DNA of 64,000 nt, taken from positions 524,967-588,966 of the forward strand of contig NIVC01000952.1 of the NCBI GenBank assembly GCA_002269645.1, given 5' to 3'. The notes under the pieces are model-generated. The model was given only the letters and a program-made list of their open reading frames with translations, searched no databases and was not told the DNA's origin. The position numbers and the translations under genes were made by a program. Position 1 is the first letter of the stretch. Each line of letters opens with the position of its first letter. Shown here piece after piece: positions 2,782 through 26,496 of this stretch. The DNA is from Macrostomum lignano (taxonomy: Eukaryota).

Positions 2782-3637
2782 TGTAGAGTGTTCTACCTCC
2801 CGTTAAAAAAGGAAAAAAGAAGATAATCGTATAATACTACTATAAGTAAGTAAGTACACGCATGTGCGCCTAAGCTTTGAATGAATCACGCTACCAGAAA
2901 AAGATGTTACCAGAATAATACGCCATGAGCCATTTTCCCCTTTTAGCGCAACACGTGAATTGTCATGATACTATTTTGGATCAAAAACTTGTCTATAAAT
3001 ACAAGCGATCTGAAGCGGTACCGGAGCCATTCTCCCCACGGAAGAGGAGCGCTCCGAAGAGGAAGCCTTAGGAGGACTTCCTGATATACCAAGTCAATCG
3101 AGACTCGGTCGAGTTGTTGCGGTAAGCCTTCCTTATTTGCGCCGTTGTGTTAGAGACGTCTCGCTCAAGTCTATTGAGACTTGAGTCTATTTGAGTCTGT
3201 TGAGACTCTTGAGTCTGTTTAGACTCCATTGGTTGCAGTCTCCAGAAGGACTGCCCCTGATAGATCTTAGAGGACTATCTGTGGTTTCCGGAGCTATACC
3301 TAGAGTGCATAGAGGCACTGCTAGAAGAAGGAGGCTTAATTTAGACCGCAGTTTGGCGCAGGGATCCCACTGTTAATTCGGAAGCTTCCCATTGGTCCGA
3401 GCGACAGAATCCGGCCGGAACTATTTGAAGAAGAAAGAAGAATCGGACCCGATCTACAAACGAAAGTCAGAAGTGACTATACGAGAGCAACTGAAGACAA
3501 TCGAGAACTACTCCGAGAGATCTCCAAAGGACTCAAGGTAATTGAATACCTTCTGTTGACTTACTGGGTTGCCTAGCTGCTGAGCTAGAAGTGATTGTTC
3601 CTTGATTATCGAAAGTCGGGTAATAAGGAACACATCA
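2782..3637 (+). repeat. 5' LTR (856 bp)
   Basis: TGTAGAGTG...AACACATCA, identical by eye to 12511-13366. TATA-like TATAAATA near 2995. Confidence 0.97.
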
Positions 3638-3639
3638 AT

Positions 3640-3650
3640 TGGTGATCTCG
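3640..3650 (+). promoter_or_regulatory. Primer-binding site, tRNA-Trp-like
   Basis: TGGTGATCTCG starts 2 nt after the LTR. It resembles the TGGTGACCCCG complement of the tRNA-Trp 3' end with two G:U wobbles; the tRNA identity is tentative. Confidence 0.65.
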
Positions 3651-4352
3651 CCCTCTCGGCACTACTCAAACCTTGAGCAATAGCCTGGCCAAGCTATTGT
3701 AAAGTGACGACAGAGCGACTTCATTAATTTTGCGCGCACGTGTTAGAGTTAACACTTTTCAAGTCCGTACGTTTTGAAACTCGAGTAAAAAATTTTGGTG
3801 TACAGGTTTGAGCACCTGTCAAATTTGAGTACAGTTTGAGCACGCGTGTTAAATTTTGTTTTAACGAGCTCGAGCAAGTGTGAGTTAAAATAAAACTGAA
3901 ATTAAATTCATCGGTACACTGAAAACAAACCGAAAATAAAAGAATCGTCGACGCAAAACAAACAAAAAAATAACGGAAACATTTTGCCGGCACAAAAAAC
4001 TAAAACCGAAATTAATTGAAACTTCGTGAAGAGCGGAGTTAAGTGACAAAAGAGAGAGAGTCAAAGAAGAAAAAAAAAAAGAATTTGCAAAGCAAGAAGA
4101 CAAGTCCATCCTAACTTGAAGATACACTTTGCGGGACGCCGCATAAGTGCGAAATCAGCAAGCGAACAGAACAAGTTCATTTGAGGACAACCAGTGGCAG
4201 CAAGCCACACCGCATCCGAGGCCAGCGAATAACAAATCGACACCACAAGACAATTCGTTACAGTCGAGGTTTATTCCGAGGCAAACACCACACTGGACGA
4301 TCCGTTACAAATCGATCCAGATCTTGAACTACCGTTCTATCCTATCAACAAC

Positions 4353-5201
4353 ATGGCGCGGCGCAATCCAACGGTACACAGAGACATCAAAGAAACGGTC
4401 GGTACCTTCTCGATGGAGAAAGATTTTAACACATTTGTCGACCACTTTGACCTGGTATGTAGGGAATACAACCTACAAAATCCAGAGAAGGCACAGCTGC
4501 TGCCACCTCTTCTCCAAGGTACTGCGCGAGAAATTTACGGCAAGCTGGATGCAGCAACACAGCAAAATTATCCAGCACTAATCATTCAACTGCGCGCGCA
4601 TTTCAACCGTTGCGGCACAAACAGATCAGTGCTGCTGCACAAGTTACATAACAGAAGGATGCAAGCAACAGAATCCTTCCTCGCCTTTGTGGACGATATC
4701 CGCCAGATAATTAAGGCACTGCATCAGCCACCGCTGCAAGCTGCGGACCAACCGCCACTGGGAGCGGCAGAATTGGCCGCCAGAGAAAGACAACGATTGA
4801 TGGATCGCGAACAAAACCTCATCCTGCACGTAATAAACAACGCACAGCCGTCACTTCGGGATAGACTTTTGCGTGAAAATATCGAAACCGAAGAAGACCT
4901 TTTGCGGTGCGGAATGCAGTGGGAAGCCAGTGCCCCATTAATGACGACAGGCAACAATGAAGTGCAGAAACTGACGCAGCAACTAAACAAGTTAATGCAG
5001 CACCAGACAGCTGCTATCGCCGAACAAAAAAGACGAAATGAACAAGCCCAGCCAGATGTTACTACTGCGGACAAGAAGGACATTATCAGATTAATTGTCC
5101 TCATTGGTCAACAAGATACGACAAGCCGCGACAGATATTCAACAATCAGAAGCCGCAGAAACCATGGCAGCAATATCAAAATCGCCAACAACAAAGCATA
5201 A
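4353..5201 (+). CDS. gag: Gag capsid region; the real Gag continues in the -1 frame from ~5050
   Basis: Gag-like helical ORF (FSMEKDFNTFVDHFDLVCREYNL...LLQGTAREIY...MQATESFLAFVDDI). A CCHC knuckle follows in the next frame. Confidence 0.9.
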   Translation: MARRNPTVHRDIKETVGTFSMEKDFNTFVDHFDLVCREYNLQNPEKAQLLPPLLQGTAREIYGKLDAATQQNYPALIIQLRAHFNRCGTNRSVLLHKLHNRRMQATESFLAFVDDIRQIIKALHQPPLQAADQPPLGAAELAARERQRLMDREQNLILHVINNAQPSLRDRLLRENIETEEDLLRCGMQWEASAPLMTTGNNEVQKLTQQLNKLMQHQTAAIAEQKRRNEQAQPDVTTADKKDIIRLIVLIGQQDTTSRDRYSTIRSRRNHGSNIKIANNKA

Positions 5202-6574
5202 GACGCGTCGGAAATGATAGACGCTTCGGAAATAATGACCGCTCCGGAAATGATGGCCGCTTCGGAAACGAAGGCCGCTTCAGAAATAATGGCTACAGGC
5301 CACGCAATGCCAGGTACGCACAAAGACAGCCAACGCAAGCAATGCCACGATACGCGAATGCCATCACGTACACACCGGAAAATGAGCAGCAGGAACAGCA
5401 AGTGTTCACAATTGACGACTTGGAAATGGACTTCACAGTCCCGGAACTTGACATCAGCTTGATCGAAAAGAAGACGACGCACGAGGACAACACTGACAAC
5501 ACAGAAGAGGCGAATGAAACCGAAATGATCGAATTAAAAGAGACCACCGGAGACAGCAGAGAAAACAGGAAGAAAGTAAATCACAAGAAAAGGGAGGAGA
5601 CGGAGAGCGACACCGGCAACGAAGAAAAGATGAAGACTGGCAGAGAAAACAACTATGAATCGACAACAGTGGATGACGAAAAAACAAGCACGAAAGACAA
5701 AGAAATGAAGGAAGAAGAAGAATGTATAAGTTGCGGCAACGATCACGACTGCGAAGTGCATGATGATACGAATGGATACCGAGCCGAAGAAGGAATGCAG
5801 GAAGAACTGAGAGCGGAAAATCTAAGTTCCGACAGCGATCAAGGCTACGAAATACAATGGAAAGATGAAGAAATGGAAAAAGAACAAATGAAAGAAAAGC
5901 CGAGTTCCGACAGCGACGAATGCTACGAGATCCGATACAAACGAAATGGTGAAGCCTATATTCAAACGGTCGACTACAAGGCAGAGAAAAGATACCAAAC
6001 GCAATGGAGTGAAACAACGGAAACATCGGAAGAAGCTACAGACGAAGATACTGAAATAACCAAAGAGCAAAGCAAATCAGAAGCCTTCCGCCTGAATCAG
6101 CCAATGGAACAACCGAAAGAATACGATGCGGACATGGAGGATAACGAATGGCAATCGCAGCCAATGCCAGCAAAGACAACGGCAAGGTCCAAGAAGTGGA
6201 AAAACTGGCTGCTCTGGATCATCGTGATACTACTGATAGCAGTAGTCGCCAAAGCAACGGCAATGGAGAAACCAATGATATGTCCAACGGATGCGCATAT
6301 CCAACCAATGATCTACAAGATACCAACCGACATCAAATGCAGCTACTTCAAGACAAACCAGACGAAGCCAAAGAAGATCACAATTGATCTCTACAAAGCT
6401 AACATCAAGAAGCATCGACAACTCGGAATAGTGTGCTTTAGAGACAAGCACCTAGTGGAAAAAGTTTGGCGAGGACAGTGGAACAGAATTCGATTTTGGC
6501 AACACGAACACATGTGTCGCACGCTGAATGTCTACAATGGAACCAAACACTGTTCTCAAAGGATGGTCAGCTAG
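5048..6574 (+). CDS. Gag zinc knuckle, R-x-G-N repeats, acidic spacer, Env signal peptide and Env N-terminus
   Basis: CYYCGQEGHYQINC at 5057-5098 is in frame with ORF 5342..6574. Five 18-nt repeats at 5204-5293. KKWKNWLLWIIVILLIAVVAKATA at 6191-6262, then MICP...KC. Confidence 0.85.
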   Translation, partial: PARCYYCGQEGHYQINCPHWSTRYDKPRQIFNNQKPQKPWQQYQNRQQQSIRRVGNDRRFGNNDRSGNDGRFGNEGRFRNNGYRPRNARYAQRQPTQAMPRYANAITYTPENEQQEQQVFTIDDLEMDFTVPELDISLIEKKTTHEDNTDNTEEANETEMIELKETTGDSRENRKKVNHKKREETESDTGNEEKMKTGRENNYESTTVDDEKTSTKDKEMKEEEECISCGNDHDCEVHDDTNGYRAEEGMQEELRAENLSSDSDQGYEIQWKDEEMEKEQMKEKPSSDSDECYEIRYKRNGEAYIQTVDYKAEKRYQTQWSETTETSEEATDEDTEITKEQSKSEAFRLNQPMEQPKEYDADMEDNEWQSQPMPAKTTARSKKWKNWLLWIIVILLIAVVAKATAMEKPMICPTDAHIQPMIYKIPTDIKCSYFKTNQTKPKKITIDLYKANIKKHRQLGIVCFRDKHLVEKVWRGQWNRIRFWQHEHMCRTLNVYNGTKHCSQRMVS

Positions 6575-8055
6575 AACCGGATGAGAAAGTGGGGGAGGCA
6601 CAACTTTACCGAACGAAGAACTCAGCAAACGGACGATATGTACACTTTTCGGAAGCATGGACTAACTACATGACACGAAACAGTTACCTAATCAGGAATA
6701 TTCCATTCTATCACAATCCTTTTGAAAAAATGGAGTCGCTACAACTGCAATTAAGCGACTGCCGATACAGCAAAGGATGGTGTCCAACACCAATTCTACG
6801 GAAGGAAGAATTACACAGTCTACCACTGAGTCCAACATATCATCAAAACTATCGATGGCAGATTGAGCACAGAGCACACTCACACTATGAGGAACCGTAC
6901 AAGTCACGACAATATTTCTTCGCATGGGAAGTAGAGCCGGAAATTGACTGCAAGCTTCAAAAGTATCACACAGTGGAAGGAGGACTACTGTCGAATACAT
7001 TTTTGGCAAAAGCAGGAGACTTGGCCTTGACGTTTCAAAAGAAGCCGGACGAACAAGAACTCAAATGCAAGAATACGGACAAGACGCTGTTCATCTCGGA
7101 GCAAGAAATACCAGTCTATGTAAAGGATGGTGACAAACAAACCTTCCTGGCAATCATAAACGGAACATATCAGCAACAAGAAAGACAGCGACGCGACATA
7201 GAACGTCCACGATTGGTGTCGAACCGACTACTGTCAGCAAAGATCACGGCTTTAGATCACAATCTGCATAACCAGCTAAATCACCTACATCGATCACTGG
7301 TTCAGTTAACTTGCAAGATGCACGCAATCAACTTGAACTACGCAAGACAAAACTACTATGTCAACCCTACGATGACATTTCGCAAGATCACTGGAATGAG
7401 AGAGGTTCTGGCAATTCCGATATATGGACATCTCCTGATATACAAGTGCACGCCGATACAGCACTTCAACATCTTGCCGTCGAATACTTCAACAACTTGC
7501 TACGACAAGCCGAGAATTGAAGCATTCTACGAAGGCAAAAGGATCCAAGGATTCTTGGACACGGTACACAACATTATCGTTGGCACCGCCATACCAAGAC
7601 CGTGCACCACGGCAGCAAACTACTATCAACTGGACAATGCACTACACGTCATCAAAACAACTGGAACGACAGCAAACGTCACAGAACCGGAAGTAATCGT
7701 CGACGAAAACTACGACATGGAGGATTTGAAAATCCGATTCAACAGAACGAAGTATACGCCATTCGCCGATATCCAACTTGACGAGATAACACCAGGATGG
7801 ACGATCAACGACTTCTTGCAAGCGTTCATCACCCAACGTAAGATGATTCACCAGCTGTTCACAAGAAAGGACAAAGGAACCGGGACAGGAAGATTTCCCG
7901 TCCTTGTTTCAATGGACAGCGCCATCAAATCATTTTGGACAAATAGCTTCTGGGAGCTGCTCAATGGAAGAGGCAGTCTCTATCAAGGATTCATCTTCTA
8001 CGGTGCTTGCATTGTGTGGATTGTCACGGCAATCTTCATCATTTCATCGATCGTA
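6191..8055 (+). CDS. env: Envelope glycoprotein, class III (gB-like), with one -1 break in the 6466-6574 overlap
   Basis: Signal peptide; Cys-rich ectodomain; six N-glycosylation sequons (NQT x2, NGT, NTS, NVT, NRT); furin site RQRR at 7183-7194; gB-like helix ...CKMHAINLNYARQNYYVNP...KC...CYDKP; TM at 7990-8055. Confidence 0.8.
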
Positions 8056-10881
8056 CGGTGCTTCAGTCAAACTTGTCCAAGAGCTAAGAAGACAGTGAAT
8101 GCCATAATGCAAAGAACGACAACGGAAAGCGACAACAGTTTAGAACTAACAGAAACTGCACATTGTGAGGTTCAAGGGCAACCGACACTAGCAACGCGGC
8201 TATATCCATCGATTCCGACAACACCAACGGCACCAAGGATACAACCACCCAACTATCAAGCAGAACAGCACGAGCCAAAATGGCCGGAAAACTACGTCTG
8301 TACGCTACACGCCGAGATTGGCAAAGCAATGGCTCAGGTCATTGTCAACAACTTGCCATGTCGAGCACTACTGGATTCAGGCAGCTCGATCACAGTCATC
8401 TCGCAACAATTATGCAACAAGCTACGACTCGCGGTACGACCAGCAGCAATCGCAGTTGCAGGAGCAGGAGGACATTCACTCAACATCCTAGGAAAAGCAG
8501 ATATCGACTTGAAAATTGCTAATAAACAGCTGACGGTCCCGACGTACATCATCGACAGACTACCAAACCAAGACGTCATCGTTGGAATCGACACGTTCAA
8601 GCAGCTTCAACTACCATTGACCTTCGACTTCAACAAGCAAACGTTTAGGATCGACACGGTGGAGCAACCGCTGATCAACCAGATTCGAGTACTACCGAAA
8701 GTAACTCTGCAGCAAGATGTCATTATCCAGCCTGAAAGCGCATGCTGGGTCAGAGCGAAAACGACCAGCGCGGCAGATGAAGCAATGATATTTGATCCAC
8801 ACAGGAGAGTCACGGCAAAACATCAAATCATGATGCCTACGGCACTAGTGCTGGTTGCAAAGGATAAGCAACTGCCAGTACAAATCTTCAACCCGAACAC
8901 AGAAACGGTTCATCTACGACAAGGAATGTGCATCGGTCATCTCAACACCCAAGCATCGGTTATGCTGATTGAACAAGCGACTCCACGACTAACAGAGGAA
9001 GAATTTCAAAAGAAGATCAATTTGGATGACAGCCCGATTACGGAACAGCAAAAGAGGAAAGTTCGACAGCTGTTGTGGAAGTACAACGAAGCCTTCTGCC
9101 ATCATGATTACGACATCGGACGAGCCAAGGACATCAAACAGGAAATCAAACTTCTGCCGCACACGGAACCAATTCAGTGCAAGCCGTACCCGATCGCCAA
9201 GCATCTGCAACAACACTTTGACGAAATCATCGATAAAATGCTAAAGCACGGCATCATCAGCAAAGCTATTTCGGCTTACTCCTCACCGTGCCTACTGGTA
9301 CAGAAGAAGGAGACAAACGAAAGACGACTCGTATGCGACTTCAGACTGTTGAACAAGTACATACCGACGGATCAGCAAAGCCTACCGAAGATCTCCGAAC
9401 TACTAGCAAAGCTCAACACGGCAAAATTGTTCACGGTGTTCGACCTACGTCATGGATTTTGGCAAATTGAAATCGAGAAAGAGTCACGACAGTACACGGC
9501 TTTCAAAACCTACAATGGACAAGTATACGAGTACAATCGATCGCCGATGGGACTCAGCAACAGCCCAGCAACGATGAGCCGACTAACAGCATACATGCTT
9601 GCAGGATGCACGAACCTGTTGCACTATGTTGACGACATCTTGGCCCACGGAGAAGACTTCGAACGACTCTATGAAGCGACGGAGAAGGCCCTCGCGCTTA
9701 TACAACGTCAAGGTCTGAAGCTACAACCAACTAAATGCAAATTCTTCCGAGACAACGTGCGTTACCTGGGACATCAGGTGACAGCCAAAGGAATCTCACC
9801 GGACCCAGACAACGTGGAAAAGGTGAAGAAGTTTCCTACGCCAACCAGTATAACGAAGGTCCAATCATTCCTTGGACTTGCGCAATACTTCAGGAAGTTC
9901 TTACCTAACTTCGCAAAGACAGCAAAGCCACTGTACGACCTGCTCAAGTTCGACAAATGGAAGCAAGACAACTGGACACAGAGACAACAGGAAAGTTTCG
10001 ACGAAATCAAACGACAGCTGACATCAGACGCACTGCTACAGCATCCGGACTTCGACAAGCCCTTCATCATCGAGACAGACGCCTCAGGAACGGGACTCGG
10101 AGCAGTCCTACTACAGGAAACCGAGGACAAGAAGGAACGACCTATTGCTTACGTCAGTCGAGCACTCAAACCAAATGAGACAAAGTGGTCAGCTACGGAA
10201 CGAGAGCTACTAGGAGTCTTGTTCGCCCTGCGACAGTTTCATTACTACATCTATGGTTCTCCAATACAGACGATAGTACGCACGGATCATGCACCATTGA
10301 CCTACGTCGTAACTACAAAAGGACAGACCAACAACCGACTCATCAGGATGACACTCAAGATCCAGGATTACAACTACAAACTCGTCTACAAACCAGGAAT
10401 TACCAACAAAGCCGCGGACGCCCTGTCAAGAGCCTATGAAGTCAACGCCATTCATCCAATCCCTAACATCAAGGAGTTGGTGGATGAAACCGAGCGCGAC
10501 AACTTCTACCAAGCGGTTAAAGACGACGACAAGAACATCCAACTCAGCCCCATGGAACGAAAATTCCTACGCAAGCAACGACAACACCTAACAATCAATA
10601 AGTCACGGCTCTACTGGATGAGCGACAATAAACCCAAGATCTACGTACCATATTCGTTTCGGCAAGCAATCTCAACGAGCTGCACGACAACCCACTCGCT
10701 GGACACCTGTCGGCCGCAAAGACCATCGCGAGAGTGGAACAATACTACTTTTGGCCAACTATGTACGGCGACATCAAGCAGTATTGCAACAACTGCCATT
10801 CATGTGCTGCATCAAAGACAGGACGACGACAGAAACCGCAGCTACAGTCCATTCCGAAGTCGACTACAATGGACTGTCTAA
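6466..10881 (+). CDS. pol: Env C-terminal part fused in frame to Pol (aspartic protease, RT, RNase H)
   Basis: LLDSGS protease (D at 8374), YVDD RT (9625-9636), ETDASG...ELL...TDH RNase H, all in the same frame as the furin site and TM. Confidence 0.95.
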   Translation: MARTVEQNSILATRTHVSHAECLQWNQTLFSKDGQLEPDEKVGEAQLYRTKNSANGRYVHFSEAWTNYMTRNSYLIRNIPFYHNPFEKMESLQLQLSDCRYSKGWCPTPILRKEELHSLPLSPTYHQNYRWQIEHRAHSHYEEPYKSRQYFFAWEVEPEIDCKLQKYHTVEGGLLSNTFLAKAGDLALTFQKKPDEQELKCKNTDKTLFISEQEIPVYVKDGDKQTFLAIINGTYQQQERQRRDIERPRLVSNRLLSAKITALDHNLHNQLNHLHRSLVQLTCKMHAINLNYARQNYYVNPTMTFRKITGMREVLAIPIYGHLLIYKCTPIQHFNILPSNTSTTCYDKPRIEAFYEGKRIQGFLDTVHNIIVGTAIPRPCTTAANYYQLDNALHVIKTTGTTANVTEPEVIVDENYDMEDLKIRFNRTKYTPFADIQLDEITPGWTINDFLQAFITQRKMIHQLFTRKDKGTGTGRFPVLVSMDSAIKSFWTNSFWELLNGRGSLYQGFIFYGACIVWIVTAIFIISSIVRCFSQTCPRAKKTVNAIMQRTTTESDNSLELTETAHCEVQGQPTLATRLYPSIPTTPTAPRIQPPNYQAEQHEPKWPENYVCTLHAEIGKAMAQVIVNNLPCRALLDSGSSITVISQQLCNKLRLAVRPAAIAVAGAGGHSLNILGKADIDLKIANKQLTVPTYIIDRLPNQDVIVGIDTFKQLQLPLTFDFNKQTFRIDTVEQPLINQIRVLPKVTLQQDVIIQPESACWVRAKTTSAADEAMIFDPHRRVTAKHQIMMPTALVLVAKDKQLPVQIFNPNTETVHLRQGMCIGHLNTQASVMLIEQATPRLTEEEFQKKINLDDSPITEQQKRKVRQLLWKYNEAFCHHDYDIGRAKDIKQEIKLLPHTEPIQCKPYPIAKHLQQHFDEIIDKMLKHGIISKAISAYSSPCLLVQKKETNERRLVCDFRLLNKYIPTDQQSLPKISELLAKLNTAKLFTVFDLRHGFWQIEIEKESRQYTAFKTYNGQVYEYNRSPMGLSNSPATMSRLTAYMLAGCTNLLHYVDDILAHGEDFERLYEATEKALALIQRQGLKLQPTKCKFFRDNVRYLGHQVTAKGISPDPDNVEKVKKFPTPTSITKVQSFLGLAQYFRKFLPNFAKTAKPLYDLLKFDKWKQDNWTQRQQESFDEIKRQLTSDALLQHPDFDKPFIIETDASGTGLGAVLLQETEDKKERPIAYVSRALKPNETKWSATERELLGVLFALRQFHYYIYGSPIQTIVRTDHAPLTYVVTTKGQTNNRLIRMTLKIQDYNYKLVYKPGITNKAADALSRAYEVNAIHPIPNIKELVDETERDNFYQAVKDDDKNIQLSPMERKFLRKQRQHLTINKSRLYWMSDNKPKIYVPYSFRQAISTSCTTTHSLDTCRPQRPSREWNNTTFGQLCTATSSSIATTAIHVLHQRQDDDRNRSYSPFRSRLQWTV

Positions 10882-11835
10882 GCATCGACATCACCGGACC
10901 ACTGCCACCGAGCTGTCTCCAGGGCATCGCCTACACCTACATTCTAACCGCCTTGGATATCTTCTCGAAGTTTGCTATCGCCATACCGATACCGGACATC
11001 ACAGCTCAGGCAGTGGCAGTGAGTTTCTTCAACGAAATATTTGCAAGTACGGCACGCCGAAGAACCTCACATCGGACAACGGATCGCAGTTTACATCGCA
11101 ACTGTTTCAGCAAGTCGTAAGGATTCTCAACATTACGCAGATCTACACATCGACCTACAATCCGAAGGCAAACATGGTTGAACGGTTTCACCGCAACCTG
11201 CACGAGATGATTACACATTTCGCGCACCAACAGCCGGAAGACTGGATCATCTACCTGCAATCTGTAACAATGGCCTACAACAGCGCTATTCATCGATCAA
11301 CGGACAATACGCCATTCTTCCTAATGTTTGGACGAGACTTCCAACGCCGAATCTGCTCGCACAGCAATTGCTACCATCGCAGTACGTGGAAGTACCGACT
11401 TCCATTCAGAAATTCGTCACGCAACTACACCTCGCATGGAAGATCGCCAAGCACAACATTGACAACCAGGTGGCTCTGACCACCGGCAACGACGCGAGAT
11501 CGACAACCCTGACGGCCGGCGACATCGTTTACCTACACTACCCGCCGCAGCAGACGCATAAACATGCACAGAAGTATAAAGGACCCTATCGAGTGGTCCA
11601 ACTAACGTCACCGACAACGGCACGCCTGGCTAATGTACAAGATCCACATCAGCACCAGTTCTACGTACACATTCATCGACTAAAGAAGATCAACACTGAC
11701 ACCGCGACGTTTCTACCGACATTAGACAACGCTGATCGCACGCGTTCAACGAACCGCCACATCGCGACGAAGCACGAGGAGACTCAAACGACAGATGTGA
11801 GCCAGCCACATGGCTACAACCTACGACCACGCTAG
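10671..11835 (+). CDS. pol: Integrase (HHCC, DDE, GPY), broken by three single-base gaps
   Basis: LHDNPLAGH...CNNCHSC, SIDITGP, SDNGSQF, VERFHR, KGPYRV. Gaps at ~10671 (c/cc), ~11041 (ttt/tttt) and ~11343 (aa/aaa). Confidence 0.92.
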
Positions 11836-11955
11836 AGTTTCGAGAGCAACCCCGTGTAGTGACCGGGATAAAGAATAGCACTACAGCTTCGCAAGCTTGT
11901 CGTAAAAGGCGACTAATCCGAGCGACACAAAGACAGCGACAAATTGGCAACAATT

Positions 11956-12330
11956 ATGGGCAACGCACTGTCGAAACAGGCGCCCCAGCCTCAGCAGCTA
12001 TATGACTGCCCGATATGTTTAACTGATGACTTGGCTGTCAAGCCACCGACTATTTGCATCAACGAACATAAAGTTTGCGGACAATGTTTAAGCGATTCAC
12101 ATTATATTCAGCCATGGCAGAATTGTCCCCTCTGTAGAGATAGTTTGCGACAATGTGCCTATTGTTATTCTTGGCGCACGTTTCAATATTGTAACCACCA
12201 ACATTTTATTTGCATGCACTGTTTGAAGCAAACCGCTAGTAGGGGCGTTATAGGATGCCCCTTATGTAATAGTATGCCGCGAGACTGCACGTTTCGAAAG
12301 TGGTGTCGGATCAAACCTGATGCCACTTGA
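11956..12330 (+). CDS. Accessory protein with an N-myristoylation motif and two tandem C3HC4 RING-like fingers (124 aa)
   Basis: MGNALS...; CPIC-x12-C-x3-H-x2-C-x2-C-x12-CPLC; CAYC-x8-C-x3-H-x2-C-x2-C-x11-CPLC. It lies between the integrase stop and the PPT. Confidence 0.85.
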   Translation: MGNALSKQAPQPQQLYDCPICLTDDLAVKPPTICINEHKVCGQCLSDSHYIQPWQNCPLCRDSLRQCAYCYSWRTFQYCNHQHFICMHCLKQTASRGVIGCPLCNSMPRDCTFRKWCRIKPDAT

Positions 12331-12495
12331 TGTCTACGCGATATTCGAGTTTTGACCGCAATATGTACTGAAAAGTTTTTAGAGTTTTGACCAAACCCTC
12401 GCTTCACTAGACGCGCACAAAATCAATTGTTTATTTCCTATATTAACTGATCACCACAGAATTTTATTGTTAAAACTCGGGACGAGTTTTTTCGT

Positions 12496-12507
12496 AAAAA
12501 AGGGAGA
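12496..12507 (+). promoter_or_regulatory. Polypurine tract
   Basis: AAAAAAGGGAGA, 3 nt before the 3' LTR. Confidence 0.85.
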
Positions 12508-12510
12508 TTT

Positions 12511-13366
12511 TGTAGAGTGTTCTACCTCCCGTTAAAAAAGGAAAAAAGAAGATAATCGTATAATACTACTATAAGTAAGTAAGTACACGCATGTGCGCCT
12601 AAGCTTTGAATGAATCACGCTACCAGAAAAAGATGTTACCAGAATAATACGCCATGAGCCATTTTCCCCTTTTAGCGCAACACGTGAATTGTCATGATAC
12701 TATTTTGGATCAAAAACTTGTCTATAAATACAAGCGATCTGAAGCGGTACCGGAGCCATTCTCCCCACGGAAGAGGAGCGCTCCGAAGAGGAAGCCTTAG
12801 GAGGACTTCCTGATATACCAAGTCAATCGAGACTCGGTCGAGTTGTTGCGGTAAGCCTTCCTTATTTGCGCCGTTGTGTTAGAGACGTCTCGCTCAAGTC
12901 TATTGAGACTTGAGTCTATTTGAGTCTGTTGAGACTCTTGAGTCTGTTTAGACTCCATTGGTTGCAGTCTCCAGAAGGACTGCCCCTGATAGATCTTAGA
13001 GGACTATCTGTGGTTTCCGGAGCTATACCTAGAGTGCATAGAGGCACTGCTAGAAGAAGGAGGCTTAATTTAGACCGCAGTTTGGCGCAGGGATCCCACT
13101 GTTAATTCGGAAGCTTCCCATTGGTCCGAGCGACAGAATCCGGCCGGAACTATTTGAAGAAGAAAGAAGAATCGGACCCGATCTACAAACGAAAGTCAGA
13201 AGTGACTATACGAGAGCAACTGAAGACAATCGAGAACTACTCCGAGAGATCTCCAAAGGACTCAAGGTAATTGAATACCTTCTGTTGACTTACTGGGTTG
13301 CCTAGCTGCTGAGCTAGAAGTGATTGTTCCTTGATTATCGAAAGTCGGGTAATAAGGAACACATCA
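12511..13366 (+). repeat. 3' LTR (856 bp)
   Basis: Same sequence as 2782-3637, followed by TGCA. Confidence 0.97.
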
Positions 13367-13494: not shown

Positions 13495-13581
13495 CTGTTC
13501 AAGTCAGGGGGTTGGTGAAATTTTATGTAAAAGCACTGAGATTGAAGGCTACCCGCAGTATTTATGCAAATGAGCACCCAC

Positions 13582-14664
13582 GTTAAGAAGCATATACATT
13601 CGAACGTCTTCGACCAGACTATCGTGCATGTCTTGCAGCTCGCACTTCACAATGTCTCCGCTGATGTAAGCAGACGGTGCCGAGTAATTGAGGCTGGAGT
13701 TCACATGAATGTCGCACACCGAGTCAGTGGACTTCAGCAACGGTTTCACTCTCAAGTAAACAGCCGTGCATCTGTCCGAGGCGCAGAAGATGTTCCGCTG
13801 CAGCAGCTCGACCTCTATGGGCATTTCGTCTCGTCTGGCGATCTCAAACTCGCAGCTGGGACCCCAGAACCCGTGGACACACGTGCATTCACCGCTAAAA
13901 CATTGGCCTCTACCTGAGCAGTTTGCTGGGCACAGATCATCGACCAGAGCTTCAATCTTGCTGGAGTTTCCCAACACCGCGGTTGCGTTGTATGTCATTT
14001 CAGTGTAGCACATGCCCAGCATCGAGTTGAACAGGGACTGTGTTGAGTCGAATGTTCCAAGCACAGTGGCGTACTGAGCACAAATCACTTTGAACTGACT
14101 AATGTAATCTGCTTGACCGGTGGGATCTTTCACTTGAGCACAGATCTCAGTGCTAACGGACTTGCTCAACTGAAGCTGCACGAACGTGTTGCAGAACTCA
14201 TCGGCCTCCTGCTGTGAAATTTCCCGAGTCTGAATCTGTCGTATGGGTTCGATTTGTGATTTCAATACCGTCTGTGCAGCTTCTCTTCTGTCTCGTCTTG
14301 TATTTTCAAGGGAAACAAAGCAATTGCTTCTGGTCATTTGGGCATCGTTGCAGGTGCAGATGCCAAGAATTTCGGTCGGCTGCATTCTGGAAAATTCGCA
14401 GACCTTCGGCATCTCGTAGAATGAGTGAAATAAACTTTTTGATGAATCTGCGATCGGCTCCCTTTGCGTTCCAAATATTAAACCATCGACTAAATTTTGT
14501 GTATCGTAAAATCCTGACACAATCATCAAATCCAAGGCAATACGATCGCCGATTTTGACCACGTACATGTATCCCTTGCAGGCCGAATCTGTTTCGAAGT
14601 TTCTCATACTTTCGCTATTCATGACAAAGCTATACAGACGGAGCTGCCCATCGAAAAGGCCCAA
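13582..14664 (-). CDS. VWD/EGF-domain (VWDE-like) extracellular protein, large exon; 5' boundary uncertain
   Basis: 371-aa ORF with a VWD-like segment (VKIGDRIALDLMIVSG...DGLIFG), a Cys-rich region and an EGF motif CPANCSGRGQCFSGECTCVHGFWGPSC. Donor AAC|gtgggt. Confidence 0.7.
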
Positions 14665-14902
14665 ACATGGAGAATAGTTCCATACAGATCGAACTGAACT
14701 TTCATTGCAGCTCCAACATTCTCTACCTTAACTCCAAATGGTAGTCAATCGGGCTTAATCGGAAGAGTTCGCTTCTGTTCACCTTTGGGTGGCAAATATT
14801 TAATTTTGGATAGTTCCTGAAGAGCTGCTACCACAAATTCGGATAATATAGTAGAAGTATCTTATTGCTATCTCAGTTGCATACCAGTTCTTGCCATCCA
14901 TC

Positions 14903-15297
14903 CTGTCCGTCAAAAGTTCCGGAACCCTTGCTACGATGTCTTCTAGCGGACATAATTTCAGTCCGTTTCAATTGTAACTTGATTCAAATGAAAGCTGCGG
15001 ATCTCAGCTCCATGATGTGGTCAAGAAAAAGTTTATTCGAAGGAGCGCGTGTGAAAAATGTGAACAGGCCAGTGTTTGTTCAATTGCTTGTTTGTCTTTT
15101 CCTCACTTTTTTTCTCTAACCTTTATGTACATAACACTGGCCTGTTCACACGCGCTCCTTCGAATAAACTTTTTCTTGACCACATCATGGAGCTGAGATC
15201 CGCAGCTTTCATTTGAATCAAGTTACAATTGAAACGGACTGAAATTATGTCCGCTAGAAGACATCGTAGCAAGGGTTCCGGAACTTTTGACGGACAG
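14903..15297. mobile_element. Foldback/MITE-like element with ~170-bp inverted arms
   Basis: 14903-15076 is the reverse complement of 15133-15297 apart from a 9-nt insertion in the left arm. Spacer is 56 nt; TSD not clear. Confidence 0.8.
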
Positions 15298-16489
15298 TAT
15301 ACATTCATCTGTATTTCGTATGGAAGCATCTTATGATATAGGAGAGTCTAATGACCATGGTGGATTTTGTCCTATAGCTCGGCTCAATTTCAGTTAAGAG
15401 GCCTCGAACTCGAACGAAATCAAATCGATAGTCGGAGGGATTCGAAGAGAGACGGATTCTAATCAAGCCACTAGCTTGCACTGTGACTAGGCCCAAATTC
15501 AAATGCACTGGAGCCGAAGATGCGCATACAGGCCCGGAGGTTTTATGTCTTTGCACTTAAATAAGCCCCGTATTTCCGCCCGCGATTGCACCCTAAAGCA
15601 GACTTGGGGGCTGGTATAGTTTGTGTCCACTGGAACAATTTTTGTCCTTGAGTAAGACACTTAGCTCTGCATTGCTTCAGTTCACCCAGCATTAGCTGGT
15701 TGGTTTAATTGGGTGTGTGCTTGGCGACCACCCAGTCCCTGGACTGAACAGCCGTACGAAGCCTTCAGATGCACCGCGCAATGGCTGGGGCTGAGCTGTC
15801 GGTTGCACTTACAAAGCCTCCAACAGCTCGTGGTGGCACTGAATCCGATCAAGAATTTTAAACTTTTGAGCCGGTTTAACGTCTGCACATGTTTTGCAGA
15901 TGGTCGTGGATTGCGTTTGCCTTATTGCAGTGTTCGTCCATCCTGGTGTACAGGTGACTATCAGTCTTACCGCTGGCTCTGCTTAGCAGGGTACGTGGAG
16001 GGAACTTTGCTTTTTAGGCGCGTTACAAAATTGGCTACTTTTAAGTTAGTATTGAAGCTATCATGAATGCGCATAAGATGGTATACGTCGTGAATTAGAA
16101 AATATATTATATCAAATAATCTAAATATACTAAATCTTCTACTATACTATTATACGAATTCATATAACTTACTCAATAGTGCATGCATTTAATAATGTAT
16201 TGATATAATAATAAAATTTCTAAAGTGAAGTAGCATCTGTAAACAGTTTTAGGACCTGAATATATGTATCAACTATATGGGGGGTTAATCCGCGGCTAAT
16301 CCGCTGTTAAGTCCGCGGTTAATCCACCGCCTGCGTTGGTAAAGCGCTCGCTCGATTCTAAACAAAACCAAAACAACGAAAAAGAATCGTTGGTAGCAAG
16401 GGAAGGGAAGGAAGCGCTAATTAAAGCTTAATAAATCGCAATCCATGCAGAAATTGCAGAAATAGTTCCAAATTGGAGGGATGCTGATC

Positions 16490-17596
16490 CAGGGCCGTAG
16501 CCAGAGGGGGGGCAAGGGGGGCCGTGGCCCCCCCAATCACCAACTCTGGCCTTGGCGCCCCCCCCCCTTAAAAGAAACTGGCGCCCCCCCACCCTAAAAG
16601 AAACTGGCGCCCCCCCCTAAAAGAAACTGGCGCCCCCCCCCCCCTTAAAGAAAGTGGCGCCCCCCTCTAAAAGAAAGTGGCGCCCCCCCCCCCTAAAAGA
16701 AACTGGCGCCCCCCTATAAGAAAGTGGCGCCCCCCCTAAAAGAAACTGGCGCCCCCCCCCCTAAAAGAAACTGGCGCCCCCCCCTAAAAGAAACTGGCGC
16801 CCCCCCCTAAAAGAAACTGGCGCCCCCCCTAAAAGAAACTGGCGCCCCCCCCCTTAAAGAAAGTGGCGCCCCCCTCTAAAAGAAAGTGGCGCCCCCCCCC
16901 CCCTAAAAGAAACTGGCGCCCCCCTATAAGAAAGTGGCGCCCCCCCTAAAAGAAACTGGCGCCCCCCCCTAAAAGAAACTGGCGCCCCCCCCTAAAAGAA
17001 ACTGGCGCCCCCCCCTAAAAGAAACTGGCGCCCCCCCCTAAAAGAAACTGGCGCCCCCCCCCTTAAAGAAAGTGGCGCCCCCCCTCTAAAAGAAAGTGGC
17101 GCCCCCCCCCTAAAAGAAACTGGCGCCCCCCTATAAGAAAGTGGCGCCCCCCCTAAAAGAAACTGGCGCCCCCCCCCTAAAAGAAACTGGCGCCCCCCCC
17201 TAAAAGAAACTGGCGCCCCCCCCCTAAAAGAAACTGGCGCCCCCCCCCCTAAAAGAAACTGGCGCCCCCCCCTTAAAGAAAGTGGCGCCCCCCCTCTAAA
17301 AGAAAGTGGCGCCCCCCCCTAAAAGAAACTGGCGCCCCCCTATAAGAAAGTGGCGCCCCCCCTAAAAGAAACTGGCGCGCCCCTATAAGAAACTGGCGCC
17401 CCCCCCTATAAGAAACTGGCGCCCCCCCCCCCCTATAAGAAACTGGCGCCCCCCCCCCCTAAAAGAAACTGGCGCCCCCCCCCCCTATAAGAAACTGGCG
17501 CCCCCCCCCTAAAAGAAACTGGCGCCCTCCTATAAGAAGCTGGCGCCCCCTAACTCACGCCCCCCCCCCCAATCAAAATTCCTGGCTACGCCCCTG
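16490..17596. mobile_element. Non-autonomous hAT element filled with a ~23-25-bp tandem array
   Basis: TIRs CAGGGCCGTAGCCAG / CTGGCTACGCCCCTG (14/15); 8-bp TSD TGCTGATC at 16482-16489 and 17597-17604; internal unit TAAAAGAAACTGGCG(C)n. Confidence 0.9.
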
Positions 17597-17829: not shown

Positions 17830-19770
17830 CAGAGGCGTCGCCATGGAGTTTATGGTAGGGGGGGGGGGCGACAAAATCAAGGATTTTACAAGTGCATGAC
17901 TAAATTCCTACATGTACATTATTTTGGGAGTCGGTGTTGTTATAGCACTCATTTTGGAGCCGCAGACACTCATTTTGGAGCCGCAGACACTCATTTTAGC
18001 CGCAGACACTCATTTTGGCCGCAGACACTCATTTTGGGGCCGCAGACACTCATTTTGGCCGCAGACACTCATTTTGGCCGCAGACACTCATTTTGGCCGC
18101 AGACACTCATTTTGGCCGCAGACACTCATTTTGGCCGCAGACACTCATTTTGGCCGCAGACACTCATTTTGGCCGCAGACACTCATTTTGGCCGCAGACA
18201 CTCATTTTGGCGCCACAGGCACTCATTTTGGGGCCGCAGACACTCATTTTGGCCGCAGACACTCATTTTGGGGCCGCAGACACTCATTTTGGAGCCGCAG
18301 ACACTCATTTTGGCCACAGACACTCATTTTGGCCGCAGACACTCATTTTGGCCGCAGGCACTCATTTTGGCGCCACAGGCACTCATTTTGGAGCCGCAGA
18401 CACTCATTTTGGCCGCAGACACTCATTTTGGGGCCGCAGACACTCATTTTGGCCGCAGACACTCATTTTGGCGCCACAGGCACTCATTTTGGAGTCGCAG
18501 ACACTCATTTTGGAGCCACAGGCACTCATTTTGGAGTCGCAGACACTCATTTTGGAGCCACAGGCACTCATTTTGGCGCCACAGGCACTCATTTTGGAGC
18601 CGCAGACACTCATTTTGGCCGCAGACACTCATTTTGGGGCCGCAGACACTCATTTTGGCCGCAGACACTCATTTTGGCGCCACAGGCACTCATTTTGGAG
18701 TCGCAGACACTCATTTTGGAGCCACAGGCACTCATTTTGGAGTCGCAGACACTCATTTTGGAGCCGCAGACATTCATTTTGGGGCCGCAGACACTCATTT
18801 TGGAGCCGCAGACACTCATTTTGGCCACAGACACTCATTTTGGCCGCAGACACTCAATTTGGCCGCAGGCACTCATTTTGGCGCCACAGGCACTCATTTT
18901 GGAGCCGCAGACACTCATTTTGGCCGCATACACTCATTTTGGGGCCGCAGACACTCATTTTGGCCGCAGACACTCATTTTGGCCGCAGACACTCATTTTG
19001 GCGCCACAGGCACTCATTTTGGCGCCACAGGCACTCATTTTGGAGCCGCAGACACTCAATTTGGCCGCAGGCACTCATTTTGGCGCCACAGGCACTCATT
19101 TTGGAGCCGCAGACACTCATTTTGGCCGCAGACACTCATTTTGGGGCCGCAGACACTCATTTTGGCCGCAGACACTCATTTTGGCGCCACAGGCACTCAT
19201 TTTGGAGCCGCAGACACTCATTTTGGCCGCAGACACTCATTTTGGGGCCGCAGACACTCATTTTGGCCGCAGACACTCATTTTGGCGCCACAGGCACTCA
19301 TTTTGGAGTCGCAGACACTCATTTTGGAGCCACAGGCACTCATTTTGGAGTCGCAGACACTCATTTTGGAGCCGCAGACATTCATTTTGGGGCCGCAGAC
19401 ACTCATTTTGGAGCCGCAGACACTCATTTTTGCCACAGACACTCATTTTTGCCGCAGACACTCATTTTGGCCGCAGAGACTCATTTTGGCGCCACAGGCA
19501 CTCATTTTGGAGTCGCAGACACTCATTTTGGAGCCACAGGCACTCATTTTGGAGTCGCTGACACTCATTTTGGAGCCACAGGCACTCATTTTGGAGCCGC
19601 AGACACTCATTTTGGAGCCACAGGCACTCATTTTGAAGCCGCAGACACTAATTTTGGAGCCACAGACAGCCATTGCCAAAGGCGCTATGTTTTGGCGCCC
19701 TGAAGCAAAGTTATTGATTTCACGGGGGGGGGGGGCATGTCCCCCTTGTCCACCGGTAGCGACGCTCTTG
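17830..19770. mobile_element. hAT-like MITE with degenerate TIRs carrying a 19/21-bp minisatellite (~17944-19665)
   Basis: Ends CAGAGGCGTCGCCA... / ...GGTAGCGACGCTCTTG with G-runs inside both. Units CACTCATTTTGG(AG/CG/GG)CCRCAGR. No TSD found. Confidence 0.6.
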
Positions 19771-22700
19771 GGTATAAGGCAACACTAAGTTTCAGTGACA
19801 GCAGTATCATGATTCAAGCGATTTAGACAATGCACAGAACCTGTTTAGCAAGCAAGCGGACATTTGTTCCGACCTACTGATAGGAAACTGCATGTGGGTC
19901 AGACAGATGAATTAAAAAAGCAAAAGTCGCACCCGAGTCGATAGGAGCGATGAACAGAAGCTCAAGTCGGACAAGAGTGCTTTCCTATACCGACTCCGTG
20001 TTACAGGAAGAAGAAGAGAATACGTAGCTATGTAATAATAATACTATACCCTCGCACACCGCCCCCCCACTTCATTCCTCAACTCAAAACTGTCGCGGCG
20101 TGGCTAAGTTGCGCCACTCGTAAAGATTGAGAGACTTTACCTCCACTCTCAAAAGTGGCGACCACAGACGGAATCTTCTGTGATGGCGACTTTTCGATGT
20201 CGCTGAGTATAAGCTCATATGAGCGTATGATGAGGACGCACTTTTTTCCAAACTTCAGGCTCGCACATGGGCTCCAAACTTACAAGCCTACTAACAACAG
20301 ACTATGGGCATTGTTTCTTCTCTTTATGCAATTTTCCTAGAATTCATACTAGTTATATGATTTTGCCATACTTGTAGTTATAATAACATAGGTGCGGTTT
20401 TTTGCTGCTTTTGGGTCATGAATCATTGCGTCTGAGCTGGTCTGACAGCCACCTGCGCCTCACTCAATGCTGAGACTGGCGCCAGATGGTGAGAGGATGC
20501 GGGCGGTAGCTTTTTTCTCATCATTTTGACAGGCCATCAAGATTTATGAGGTCAGGGCCTATTGTTCGTGTTCACTCAAGCGTGTGGCAGCTTTGACAGC
20601 TATGCGTTTTACTCCTAAAAGTACGTTGGGATTAGCGATTATCGATTTCTCTTCATTATCTTCACTTTCTACTTAATAAGAGCTTTCTAATGTATATTTT
20701 TTTATTAATTTTTGTCATTCCTACGCGAAAGGTCATAAATCACTATGTAGCTATTTTGAGTGATTTATGACCGCACCTGTCGTATTTTTATGGCCCCGAT
20801 GGAACTGATAGGATCTTCTGGTCACGTGAGTTTGGGTGGCAACAAGCTCAGCCAATCAGAAAATTCGACGTGCGTTATAACAAATCGGCTCAGCCAATCA
20901 GCGTCGAGGTGTTCCATTATAACAAATTGCGGTCCAGTTGGCGGCTATTTAAACCGGTGTTTTTGGCCCGCTCGGACTCAACCTCCTGCTCCGCCTCCTG
21001 GGACTTTGACCTAACTTAGACCTCCCGGAGCTCGACCGTCGTCTTTTGATCCCCGGATCGCGACTAACCCTGTCATCATCAAGGACGAATCCCCCCGGTC
21101 GTCAGCAGCGAACATCAAGATTAAGAACATCACCTGCTAGCTATCTGCGAAGATTGTGACAACAGCATCATCCCGGGCCTACAGCTGCGAAGCACTGAGC
21201 CGATTCGGTCGCTGTGGATTACCTGGTCTCCGGCTGTTGAGTTTCTGATTGGTTGGGTGAGAGGCTACCTAGACTTGCTTGTGTCATGAATGTGATATTG
21301 TAACTTGAGTTGAGTGCACTATTCTACGCCGGGCCAGTCTGGCCGGCATCTCCCCCCCCCCTCCTCAGATATTTTCTGACTCACCCCCCTTCACTTCTGC
21401 GCGTGTGTACCCTACCCCCTCTCTGCCTAGGCCTTGTCTGTTATTCAACCCCCATTCTCTGCGTGCGACCCCCCCCCCATTCTTTGCGTGCGACCCCGCC
21501 CCATTCTTTTGTTAGCTTTGCTGCCCCGCCCCTGTTTGTGATTGGCTGCCAGTCCCAGTCTGCCGTGCTGCGCCCCGGCGATTGGCTGGTACGGCTCATG
21601 TTTTTCCTATGCTGATGTCTAAGTCCCCTTTTCTGCCTTTATCCCGCGCCCTCAACCCCCAGTTTGCTGCCTATTTATTCGGACCCCCTTGAGACCCCAT
21701 TCTCGTCATCTTCGTGGCTCTCCGGTGATTTTGCTAGCGTTGGTTGCTATTAAGTGTCCGAATTGTCCTACAAATACAATTAAAATATCGATAATCCCAC
21801 TGCTCTGTCGGCGCTGTTCCCGAGTTGTACGACTGAAATCGCGGCTGGTAAGCCTTCCAATTTGCAAGTCATTTGGGTCTGCATCTGTACTAGGCACCTT
21901 AGGGGGATTAAGTGCGTCGTACGCCGGTCCCACCCCAAGCAGCTCTGCGTCGTACGCTCGAGCAGCCTAGTCCCGACGGATACCGCGTCGTACGCGTGTC
22001 AGTGGAGGACCGCAGCCGGGGTCAGTACGCGAACCCGGGTCTGGGAAAGGGGCACGAAAGGACCGAGCCCTTGAGCCCCATCACAACACTTGATTGGGTG
22101 ATTCCTCATCTGTCCCCTATTTCAGTAGCTGAATTAGGCGCACACTTTTGCTCATTTTGTTCAGCAGTGCTGTTATCGAGGCAGAAATCACTTTATAATA
22201 CTGCTAGTAGTCTGAAACTCCAATTCAATCTAAAGTGTGAAGTGATTTAAGGAGAAGGTTAAATCTGACAGTAATTTTTATCGGTTTTATTCTTTGTTCC
22301 CCGATGGCTCAGATGAGTAGCTAAGCTAGTAGGCGCCGGTCACAGTGGACCAATGGCAAGGCAGTTCTCAGTCGATCAATCTATCAAATCAGTTAGCAAA
22401 ATTGCCAATAGTGCAAAATCACAAAATCTGACAGGAGGGGGGGGCAGGACTCTAATTGATTTATTTCTGAGACCTGAGGCCCGAAGGCTTCCCGAAAGGG
22501 GCCGAAAAGGCCGAAACCCATCACGTACAGGGTGTACAGCGGTTCCGAGTTTCTCACCGTCAGGCTTGCGCACCCTCTGTGCCTTGGAGGTTGGTTCGTT
22601 TTCTGAGCTGGATTTATTTTGCGTTGCTGGGTCGGCGTTGCATAGGATATACCGGTTCCCTTCCCAGGGAAATTAGCGAGTTACAACACGTTATAATAAA

Positions 22701-22934
22701 ATATTGCCTACTGATTGATGTTGCAGAAAATTCCAACTATTGCTAGCTATGATAATATACTCTGAATATCACAATTTCCGTGCCGATGTAGCAAAATATC
22801 ACAAAAATGTGCAGTCAAATCACCTTGTTGCAGCGAAAGCATTGCATAGCCTATGAAATTTTAAAATCATCTTCATCTCGACCATGCACCCATGCTTGTT
22901 AATTGTTGCTGTGTTGATTCTTTGATATACCAGA

Positions 22935-23450
22935 CATTTCCCCTCCGGTGTTTTCCCTCTGGTGTTTCCCTTTCAGTGTTTTCCTCCAGCGTTTCCGGTC
23001 CGGCATTTTCCCTCCGGTGTTTCCCTTTCGGTGTTTTCCTCCAGCGTTTCCGGTCCGGCATTTTCTCTCCGGTGTTTCCCTTCCGGTGTTTTCCTCCAGC
23101 GTTTCCGGTCCGGCATTTTCCCTCCGGTGTTTCCCTTTCGGTGTTTTCCTCCAGCGTTTCCGGTACGGCATTTTCCCTCCGGTGTTTTCCTCCAGCGTTT
23201 CCGGTCCGGCATTTTCCCTCCGGTGTTTCCCTTTCGGTGTTTTCCTCCAGCGTTTCCGGTCCGGCATTTTCTCTCCGGTGTTTCCCTTCCGGTGTTTTCC
23301 TCCAGCGTTTCCGGTCCGGCATTTTCCCTCCGGTGTTTCCCTTTCGGTGTTTTCCTCCAGCGTTTCCGGTCCGGCATTTTCCCTCCGGTGTTTCCCTTCC
23401 GGTGTTTTCCTCCAGCGTTTCCGGTCCGCCTTTTTCTCTCCGGTGTTTCC
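22935..23450. repeat. 55-bp tandem array (~9 units), with an inverted cognate at ~23700-23770
   Basis: CGGCA recurs at 23001 and 23056. Unit TTTTCCCTCCGGTGTTTCCCTTTCGGTGTTTTCCTCCAGCGTTTCCGGTCCGGCA. Reverse-oriented GGAAAATGTCCGGAGG motifs end at ...AACGCACC. Confidence 0.85.
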
Positions 23451-26076: not shown

Positions 26077-26112
26077 CTAAACTACCTAAGCAAAATCACA
26101 CAGAGCAAGCGC

Positions 26113-26496
26113 TCAGTCAACTGTCAACCCCGCCGACTTGGCGTACGTGAGCTCAAACAGTCGCTCAGCCGTGAGCTCCGGCTCCCCCCCGTACTTGGCC
26201 GCCCAGTCCACGTACGGCTTGAGCTGGAAGCCGGTCAGGTCGGGCACAACGAGTTCCGGCCGGGCTTCGCTGAACGCTCGACTGCCTGAGGGGCCGCCGC
26301 GAGTGGCAGCCGCGATGGCCACTCGGTCGGGCATCTCGCGCGGCACCCAAGGATTGTCGGCCCGGCGCTGGTGCTTGCGAACCGCCGTCATCCAGGCGTG
26401 GCCCTGATTTATGATTTGACAACAGCTCAAGACTTTATTTTTTTAGAGGCTGGGGGCTGTGTGCACCCTGGTGCACTTGGAGGCATTACTGCTCAT
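26113..26496 (-). CDS. MRPL41: Mitochondrial ribosomal protein mL41 (exons 26496-26467 and 26403-26113, ~106 aa)
   Basis: PELVVPDLTGFQLKPYV...LTAERLF matches the mL41 signature. Acceptor aaatcag|GGC. First exon MSSNASKCTR with a weak donor gtgcac; exon 1 is less certain. Confidence 0.85.

Follow-up and report, generated by a model that had tools for sequence, protein, structure and literature searches.

The question raised by this locus is what a small gene, encoding a protein with a myristoylation-like start and two adjoining zinc fingers, does near the 3' end of a retroelement of Macrostomum lignano. An earlier note on the window (the whole stretch of 64,000 nucleotides that was analysed) had described an intact 124-aa open reading frame in the usual env slot, and had offered a matrix protein or an E3 ubiquitin ligase as its role. 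The frame (11956-12330, + strand), its MGNALSK start and the two RING-like fingers were confirmed. The first finger, RING1 (C18-R61, 12007-12138, +), reads C18-x2-C-x12-C-x3-H-x2-C-x2-C-x12-C-x2-C60, ie eight zinc ligands at canonical spacing, and ends in an invariant P-x-C-R. The second, RING2-like finger (C67-C104, 12154-12267, +) reads C67-x2-C-x8-C-x3-H-x2-C-x2-C-x11-C-x2-C104, with a short first loop of eight residues and no linchpin Arg. The double-finger pattern occurred in none of 20,000 shuffles. Pfam recognised finger 1 only, and that at 18.2 bits to zf-RING_2 against a curated cut-off of 27.3. The word intact holds for the open frame and both fingers, but what is seen here is the shortened form of a gene that encodes 222 aa in full, here called gene A.

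The ORF falls in the stretch from the integrase stop (11835) to the 3' LTR in an element that occupies 2782-13366. The two 856-bp LTRs are identical and the insertion is bounded by a TGCA target-site duplication, so the insertion is young. The 5' LTR (2782-3637, +, TG...CA) has TATAAA at 2994, a conserved splice-donor-like G|GTAAGC at 3121 and, at 3537, the donor proposed in the earlier note. It is followed by a primer-binding site (3640-3651, +), by gag (4353-5201, +), which starts MARRN and lacks Gly2 as had been reported, and by a segment holding the end of gag, an acidic spacer and a class III (gB/chuvirus-like) env (5042-8199, +). The env segment has a hydrophobic signal, an RQRR site and a transmembrane helix at about 7987-8043. 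A late-domain-like cluster of LYPxI, PTAP and PPxY (8200-8256, +) separates that helix from protease, RT, RNase H and integrase (8305-11835, +), of which the first three are in frame with env. Beyond the RING gene come a decayed coding remnant of a helical domain (12331-12460, +), the scar of a deletion of about 1.06 kb, a polypurine tract (12496-12507, +) and the 3' LTR (12511-13366, +), which has the same sequence as the 5' LTR. In the window copy gag is frameshifted near codon 232, the gag-env segment is in two frames and integrase is spread over three; several other copies contain a single open frame of about 2,500 codons.

With LTRs, primer-binding site, polypurine tract, target-site duplication and the protease-RT-RNase H-integrase order all present, and a full domain order of gag, acidic spacer, env, protease, RT, RNase H, integrase, the element is a young gag-env-pol Ty3/gypsy errantivirus with a gB-type env. 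The Monjiviricetes fusion family PF24664 matches env weakly, in four of four segments (E 1e-4 to 8e-6, all under the cut-off). Because env sits upstream of protease there is no vacated env slot, and env was not displaced by the RING gene. The root of the RT tree was not resolved. The long spacer between gag and env (5342-6200) is acidic and fast-evolving, with a 78-nt duplication at 5786-5941.

The element itself is already catalogued, as it is of the same family as the published Mlig_errantivirus_2 (Chary and Hayashi, PMC13524379). In the text of that paper available to us the two share the 12-mer of the primer-binding site and a gB-type env before pol, published there as ENV_HSV; the LTR spacing is 9727 as against 9729 in the window and the LTR about 864 as against 856 bp. 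A public protein labelled Macrostomum lignano carries near-identical RING paralogs. In genome G000, contigs C2121, C1130, C87, C272 and C4009 hold dense nested clusters of these elements, and on any one contig almost all of them point the same way; self-targeted insertion and single-strand, piRNA-cluster-like loci are candidate readings of this arrangement.

The RING gene was then followed across DNA copies, with 40 of 80 candidates scored. All 40 lie inside the element, with integrase sequence upstream. The short type accounts for 25 (124 aa in 15, 144 aa in six and an earlier stop in four) and the long type for 13, ten of them of 222 aa; the remaining two are diverged. The frame is open through both fingers in 36 of the 40, and the M-G-x-x-x-S start with Gly2 is kept in 38. 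In the long type the protein extends into a helical domain of about 100 aa, and a further gene, paralog B, follows. Compared with a long-type copy, the window matches at 37-40 bases in every 40 up to about 12279, and at 18-29 thereafter, where it resembles instead an old short-type copy, L039 (36-37 bases in 40). This switch indicates that the window ORF is a recombinant, ending in a stop, a decayed helical remnant and the deletion, which took the rest of gene A and the whole of paralog B. Between the window and L054, dS is 0.31 in RT and 2.6 in the RING gene, a contrast which points to the swapping of cassettes between subfamilies by recombination. A tandem pair of A-B cassettes stands behind a single integrase end at L047 2957-5773, and in a distant-family copy gene A holds what by eye is a mariner-type transposase fragment (L059 2461-3123, -).

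The window ORF thus belongs to a multi-paralog accessory cassette which follows integrase in several related element families. Gene A, in its full form RING1-RING2-helical domain, heads the cassette. A protein search returned 151 matches. Families whose RT is just 82% identical have cassettes of two or three paralogs each in the same place; one element, its 982-bp LTRs identical, has two paralogs, another, with LTRs 98.9% identical, has three, and numbers are higher in nested clusters. For alignment, 22 intact, distinct proteins were hand-chosen from the approximately 150 matches, a choice that favours conserved motifs. The alignment of type-A with non-A paralogs extends over 189 columns (hhalign 99.8%), nearly the full length of the proteins, and the two groups fall apart in the tree, so that the duplication is older than the element families. 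Three further full-length relatives, P0002-P0004 (E 6e-38 to 2e-35), came from a profile search over 1.84 billion proteins; they are not encoded in G000, where their best identities are 42, 33 and 30%; for P0002 no genomic context was found in metagenome or viral contigs. Single-protein homolog searches with the 124-aa or the 222-aa query found nothing. With the helical-domain profile, P0001 was the only match among longer proteins, and the Atlas gave none. A host donor gene with introns was not seen among the best 150 candidates of each search. Apparent stand-alone copies on contigs C273, C1391, C738, C986, C283 and C1063 all adjoin pieces of element 3' UTR or LTR, and another on C356 is a decayed DNA fragment.

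The T-richness of the ORF, which the earlier note had read as suggesting capture, is real. Its T content is 0.28, as against a maximum of 0.248 in any 375-nt window from gag to integrase; four-fold sites have T at 0.25, compared with 0.12 (p = 0.025), and NNT and NNC codons stand at 30:15 against 91:209 (p = 7e-6). However, distant families have type-A genes whose T-richness equals or exceeds this (four-fold T 0.27-0.43; 0.17 in one near copy), past the point of synonymous saturation, whereas the later paralogs are mostly GC-rich. A bias that outlasts synonymous saturation is no trace of recent capture, and that part of the proposal is abandoned.

The comparison of dN and dS across copies gave values well below 1, as expected of a selected accessory gene. 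For the RING part of type A, dN/dS was 0.07-0.29 in 11 of 12 near pairs (one is saturated) and 0.15 and 0.43 in two distant-family pairs; other paralogs gave 0.08-0.25, the helical domain 0.13-0.39 and RT 0.02-0.21. These are pairwise values from pairs that are not independent, and the intervals of some short pairs reach 1. Selection on the short form has to be considered separately, as the ORF could be a passenger, ie the decaying remnant of a once useful cassette. The loss of the helical domain and paralog B agrees with this, as does a sister subfamily that has decayed further and is still spreading, and variants found in single short-type copies are neutral (pN/pS 1.04), as expected after insertion. 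Against it, variants shared between short-type copies have pN/pS 0.18 (nine synonymous, six non-synonymous; p = 0.0013; 0.17 for long A and B), the window and the old copy L039 differ with dN/dS 0.22 (0.10-0.38), and neutrality is rejected for the family as a whole. We regard the passenger explanation as very unlikely. The purifying selection seen on the short form may nevertheless be partly inherited, since its 5' part was recombined in from a full-length gene.

Selection over the long term does not make the gene indispensable to the copy that carries it. A stop at codon 71 is common to 20 copies; in the ten that were read, the last cysteine of RING1 is also altered and paralog B is gone, and in all five tested the LTRs are 99.1-100% identical. 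A young subfamily of 20 copies has therefore spread with a dead cassette, and the gene is dispensable in cis, a success that also fits a gene of small benefit. Separately, three young elements (L053, L077 and L079, on C301, C4582 and C525) are internally deleted, with protease, RT and most of integrase gone and gag and both RING genes kept; the LTRs of such elements are identical.

As to what the proteins do, the features of RING1 fit a ubiquitin ligase. The linchpin Arg of the P-x-C-R motif in RING fingers activates E2~ubiquitin, and P-x-C-R closes RING1 in 27 of 27 family proteins, whereas an Arg after RING2 is found in none of the 27. The hydrophobic, E2-facing residues of loop 1 are, like P-x-C-R, invariant across paralogs that are only 20-40% identical. 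Pfam reports Sina_RING in 19 of the 22 members at E <= 0.05, the best member reaching 7e-8 to zf-C3HC4_3, and the best PDB matches of the family profile are RING1B, TRIM5, TRIM21 and SIAH1 (E about 2e-5 to 1.5e-4). In the predicted structure of the 222-aa protein (pLDDT 87), RING1, searched as residues 9-67, overlays the RINGs of E3 ligases with Z 4.5 and rmsd 2.1 over 47 aa, a modest, noise-adjacent score, and Foldseek with the RING1 model gave no match at E <= 0.001. Finger 2 has weak profile matches to MAT1 (E 0.036) and BRE1 (E 0.04). The helical domain is modelled at pLDDT 82 and has an invariant WP; Foldseek found no match to it. Its best fold scores, to TAP and the ATP-synthase delta N-domain (Z 6.8 and 6.5), are in the range of generic bundles and both assignments were rejected.

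The ligase option of the earlier note thus fits RING1; RING2 lacks the Arg, and the window's own RING1 score is under the Pfam cut-off. The strongest competitor is a zinc-binding protein that is not a ligase but an adaptor or regulator, such as an E2 sink or a regulator of the element's transcription or RNA. RING folds also act as scaffolds, RING2 lacks the Arg, the helical domain matches no known fold, and the short form survives the loss of the domain presumed to choose the substrate. The invariance of the loop-1 hydrophobic residues and of P-x-C-R at such low identity indicates an E2-binding face, however, and we consider an adaptor unlikely. By a narrow measure we favour the view that the window ORF is a shortened representative of a long-standing family of accessory RING proteins, borne by the elements, which are candidate E3 ubiquitin ligases; their task is probably to mark host proteins for destruction and not to form part of the particle.

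The myristoylation signal invites a different account, namely that a RING protein with a myristoyl anchor links the Gag core with the membrane. Arenavirus Z is a small protein with a Gly2 start, a RING zinc finger and a C-terminal PTAP/PPxY late domain, and the window protein is likewise small, with Gly2 and a RING zinc finger. G2 and S6 outlast synonymous saturation within the Gly2 clade (MGNALS compared with MGNAQS), which, with the retention of the motif across DNA copies noted above and a Gag that lacks Gly2, counts in favour of a matrix role. But Gly2 is present in just five of 27 family proteins, a single clade with moderate support nested among non-Gly type-A genes, and where it is missing the families still show the MARRN start of Gag and young LTR pairs. 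The ORF has no PTAP or PPxY (PT/SAP or PPxY occurs in none of the 22 cassette proteins examined, with one YPxxxL-like match), no Z family appears among the Pfam matches of the 22 members or the 40 PDB profile matches, and the 20 young copies with a dead gene show it to be dispensable in cis, although supply in trans is possible. Unlike Z, the protein has two fingers and a native form twice as long. By its sequence the window protein falls outside the arenavirus Z family, and the matrix proposal has very little left to recommend it. The myristoyl anchor is probably real but derived.

The anchor could alternatively serve release of the element, with membrane-bound gene A protein ubiquitinating Gag or the env tail and so aiding ESCRT recruitment at late domains. 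The LYPxI/PTAP/PPxY cluster on the env tail is a candidate set of such domains: PTAP and PPxY together are found in eight of eight copies of the Gly2 lineage, and in 48 of 100,000 shuffles, while the two families lacking Gly2 carry a single motif or neither. That the Gly2 lineage also has both motifs is the point in favour of a release ligase, but it is a single co-occurrence on the tree and not a set of independent events. It also leaves two or three diverged, anchorless paralogs unexplained, and the dead-cassette subfamily kept its late domains and spread. We judge this improbable, if less so than a matrix role.

Returning to the accessory ligase family, RING1 would bind and activate host E2~ubiquitin, with the substrate chosen by RING2 and the helical domain, and the divergence of the paralogs would direct them to different host proteins that limit the element, such as silencing, antiviral or cell-death factors. 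RING ligases would work in trans, allowing copies that have lost the cassette to spread. In one lineage gene A may have acquired the myristoylation signal, placing the protein on membranes. The 124-aa form, which keeps the anchor and both fingers and has lost the helical domain, might then be a ligase of reduced specificity, a decoy for E2 or substrate, or a stage in decay. The broader proposal, that an endogenous animal errantivirus encodes its own diversifying E3 family as a trans-acting counter-defence locus comparable to the accessory genes of large viruses, shed by cheater subfamilies, with the first gene translated via an undescribed pseudoknotted RNA leader shared with LINEs (either a site of internal entry or a self-processing RNA of a new kind), is put forward tentatively.

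How the cassette genes might be expressed was considered from the LTR onwards. Both of the splice signals that had been proposed, a donor at about 3537 and an acceptor at about 11887, exist as sequence, but the 3537-11887 joint is absent among the joints listed in four sequencing runs presumed to be RNA. All 30 bins were covered in these runs, with no silent control, and no run holding the sequence is on record as RNA. In three of the four, contigs span the 3' junction of the short type and differ from it at 0-1 positions, which speaks for presence only. The donor conserved across families is not that at 3537 but the G|GTAAGC at 3121, which is common to the window and two distant LTRs, 113-127 nt past the TATA box; one contig ends at it. 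CAG stands 0-2 nt before the ATG in eight of ten later paralogs examined, and a public gene model, P0001 (a prediction), joins the G|GTAAGC donor to a CAG-preceded paralog ATG. The later paralogs may accordingly be expressed by splicing from the LTR donor to CAG|ATG acceptors, and gene A through a pseudoknot leader or an acceptor inside it. The AG of the acceptor at about 11887 (ending at 11886) lies in the 3' strand of that pseudoknot, and its conservation therefore neither shows nor excludes splicing.

The leader is a conserved structured RNA (11851-11916, +) ahead of the RING gene, composed of a stem (11851-54/11864-67), the pseudoknot (11855-61/11879-85) and a hairpin (11899-903/11909-13). 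The 20-nt core of this 65-nt element has 99 occurrences in G000, always at the head of a cassette, with no control matches, and in 20 of 21 element instances the first AUG past the core, in any frame, is the start of gene A. In the pseudoknot helix two pairs are compensated and pairing holds in 98% of cells (none of 500 shuffles), the covariation being taken from 12 related sequences with few independent events. Its folding energy is unremarkable (z -0.45). The core was also found in 19 metagenome contigs, 3-9 nt before an endonuclease-RT ORF in two and before an RT ORF in one. The flanking stem covaries in these LINE-side instances (none of 5,000 partner swaps), and pseudoknot pairing is clear in just four of the 16 metagenome instances scored. 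Leader-type RNA stands just before LINE-type ORFs at L149, L151, L152 and L156, and L157 has four tandem copies. Rfam gave no match at E <= 5 in 221 bases and none at the motif in eight metagenome loci, and the sequence string is absent from the literature searched. Two known RNAs were set aside. The conserved L4 and L1 strings of the twister ribozyme of RTE elements (as given in the available text of PMC8501958) were not matched in a by-eye comparison, and the leader differs from Kojima's RTE/Ceph domain as judged from the supplement text of PMC5786205. The leader, recognised by its position and covariation, is a candidate self-cleaving or IRES-like RNA of LINE type and, covarying, missing from Rfam and shared by LINEs and an LTR element, it is a separate lead.

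The nearest precedent for the cassette, by analogy, is the planarian Burro element. From the part of PMC6431247 consulted, the giant gypsy elements Burro/GYPSM1 carry domains linked to ubiquitination and apoptosis, and interference with host systems was proposed for them. Burro resembles the present element in being a flatworm gypsy with env in frame between gag and pol and such extra domains; its own (MATH/TRAF, BIR, BCL2, SUMO-like, ankyrin, AIR1 motif) lie in or upstream of the polyprotein, whereas the Macrostomum cassette consists of separate 3' genes, an array of paralogs with a candidate catalytic RING and a helical domain (PMC6431247). The ORF3s of bdelloid rotifer LTR elements are similar in being non-env accessory ORFs after pol with family-specific gain and loss, but they are GDSL esterases, DEDDy exonucleases or TM proteins, mostly single, and the text available from PMC5408684 has no mention of RING, zinc or ubiquitin. 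The likeness to viral proteins is confined to RING1. ICP0, PE38 and the RING proteins of giant viruses are RING E3 ligases of large DNA viruses, and viral RING proteins make up the nearest Atlas clusters (0.90-0.91) and the best Foldseek rows; the resemblance is not significant (best E 4.7e-3), and none of them has RING2 with the helical domain. Lentiviruses make use of the ligases of their hosts, and large DNA viruses bring ligases of their own.

In the literature searched no LTR retroelement with its own array of RING-ligase genes was found. The main text of PMC13524379 has no mention of RING, zinc finger, accessory genes, ubiquitin, late domain, PTAP, myristoylation or splicing, and its table head has no extra-ORF column; its supplements were searched for host names only, and the cassette may already be annotated in their other parts or in transposon libraries. 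The element family is thus known, and no published description of its multi-paralog RING cassette was found. Little is understood of the means by which animal transposons resist silencing, and the cassette makes the question approachable: its genes are small, soluble and selected, and their substrates would name host restriction factors. The coexistence of full, truncated and dead cassettes among young copies provides a natural test of public goods and cheaters.

Other features of the window lie downstream of the element. Just outside the 3' LTR, an open frame of 357 aa (13549-14622, -), its Cys pattern EGF-like, is probably a host exon. At 14900-15300 there is a 156-nt inverted repeat, 99% complementary with an 89-nt spacer, which is MITE-like or a fold-back. 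Minisatellite arrays, whose repeat units are about 23, 19/21, 14 and 23 nt long, together with a cluster of short inverted repeats, occupy 16535-17420, 17900-19710, 22830-23560, 24920-26200 and 27070-27460; the long ORFs at 17896-19788 are artefacts of the repeats.
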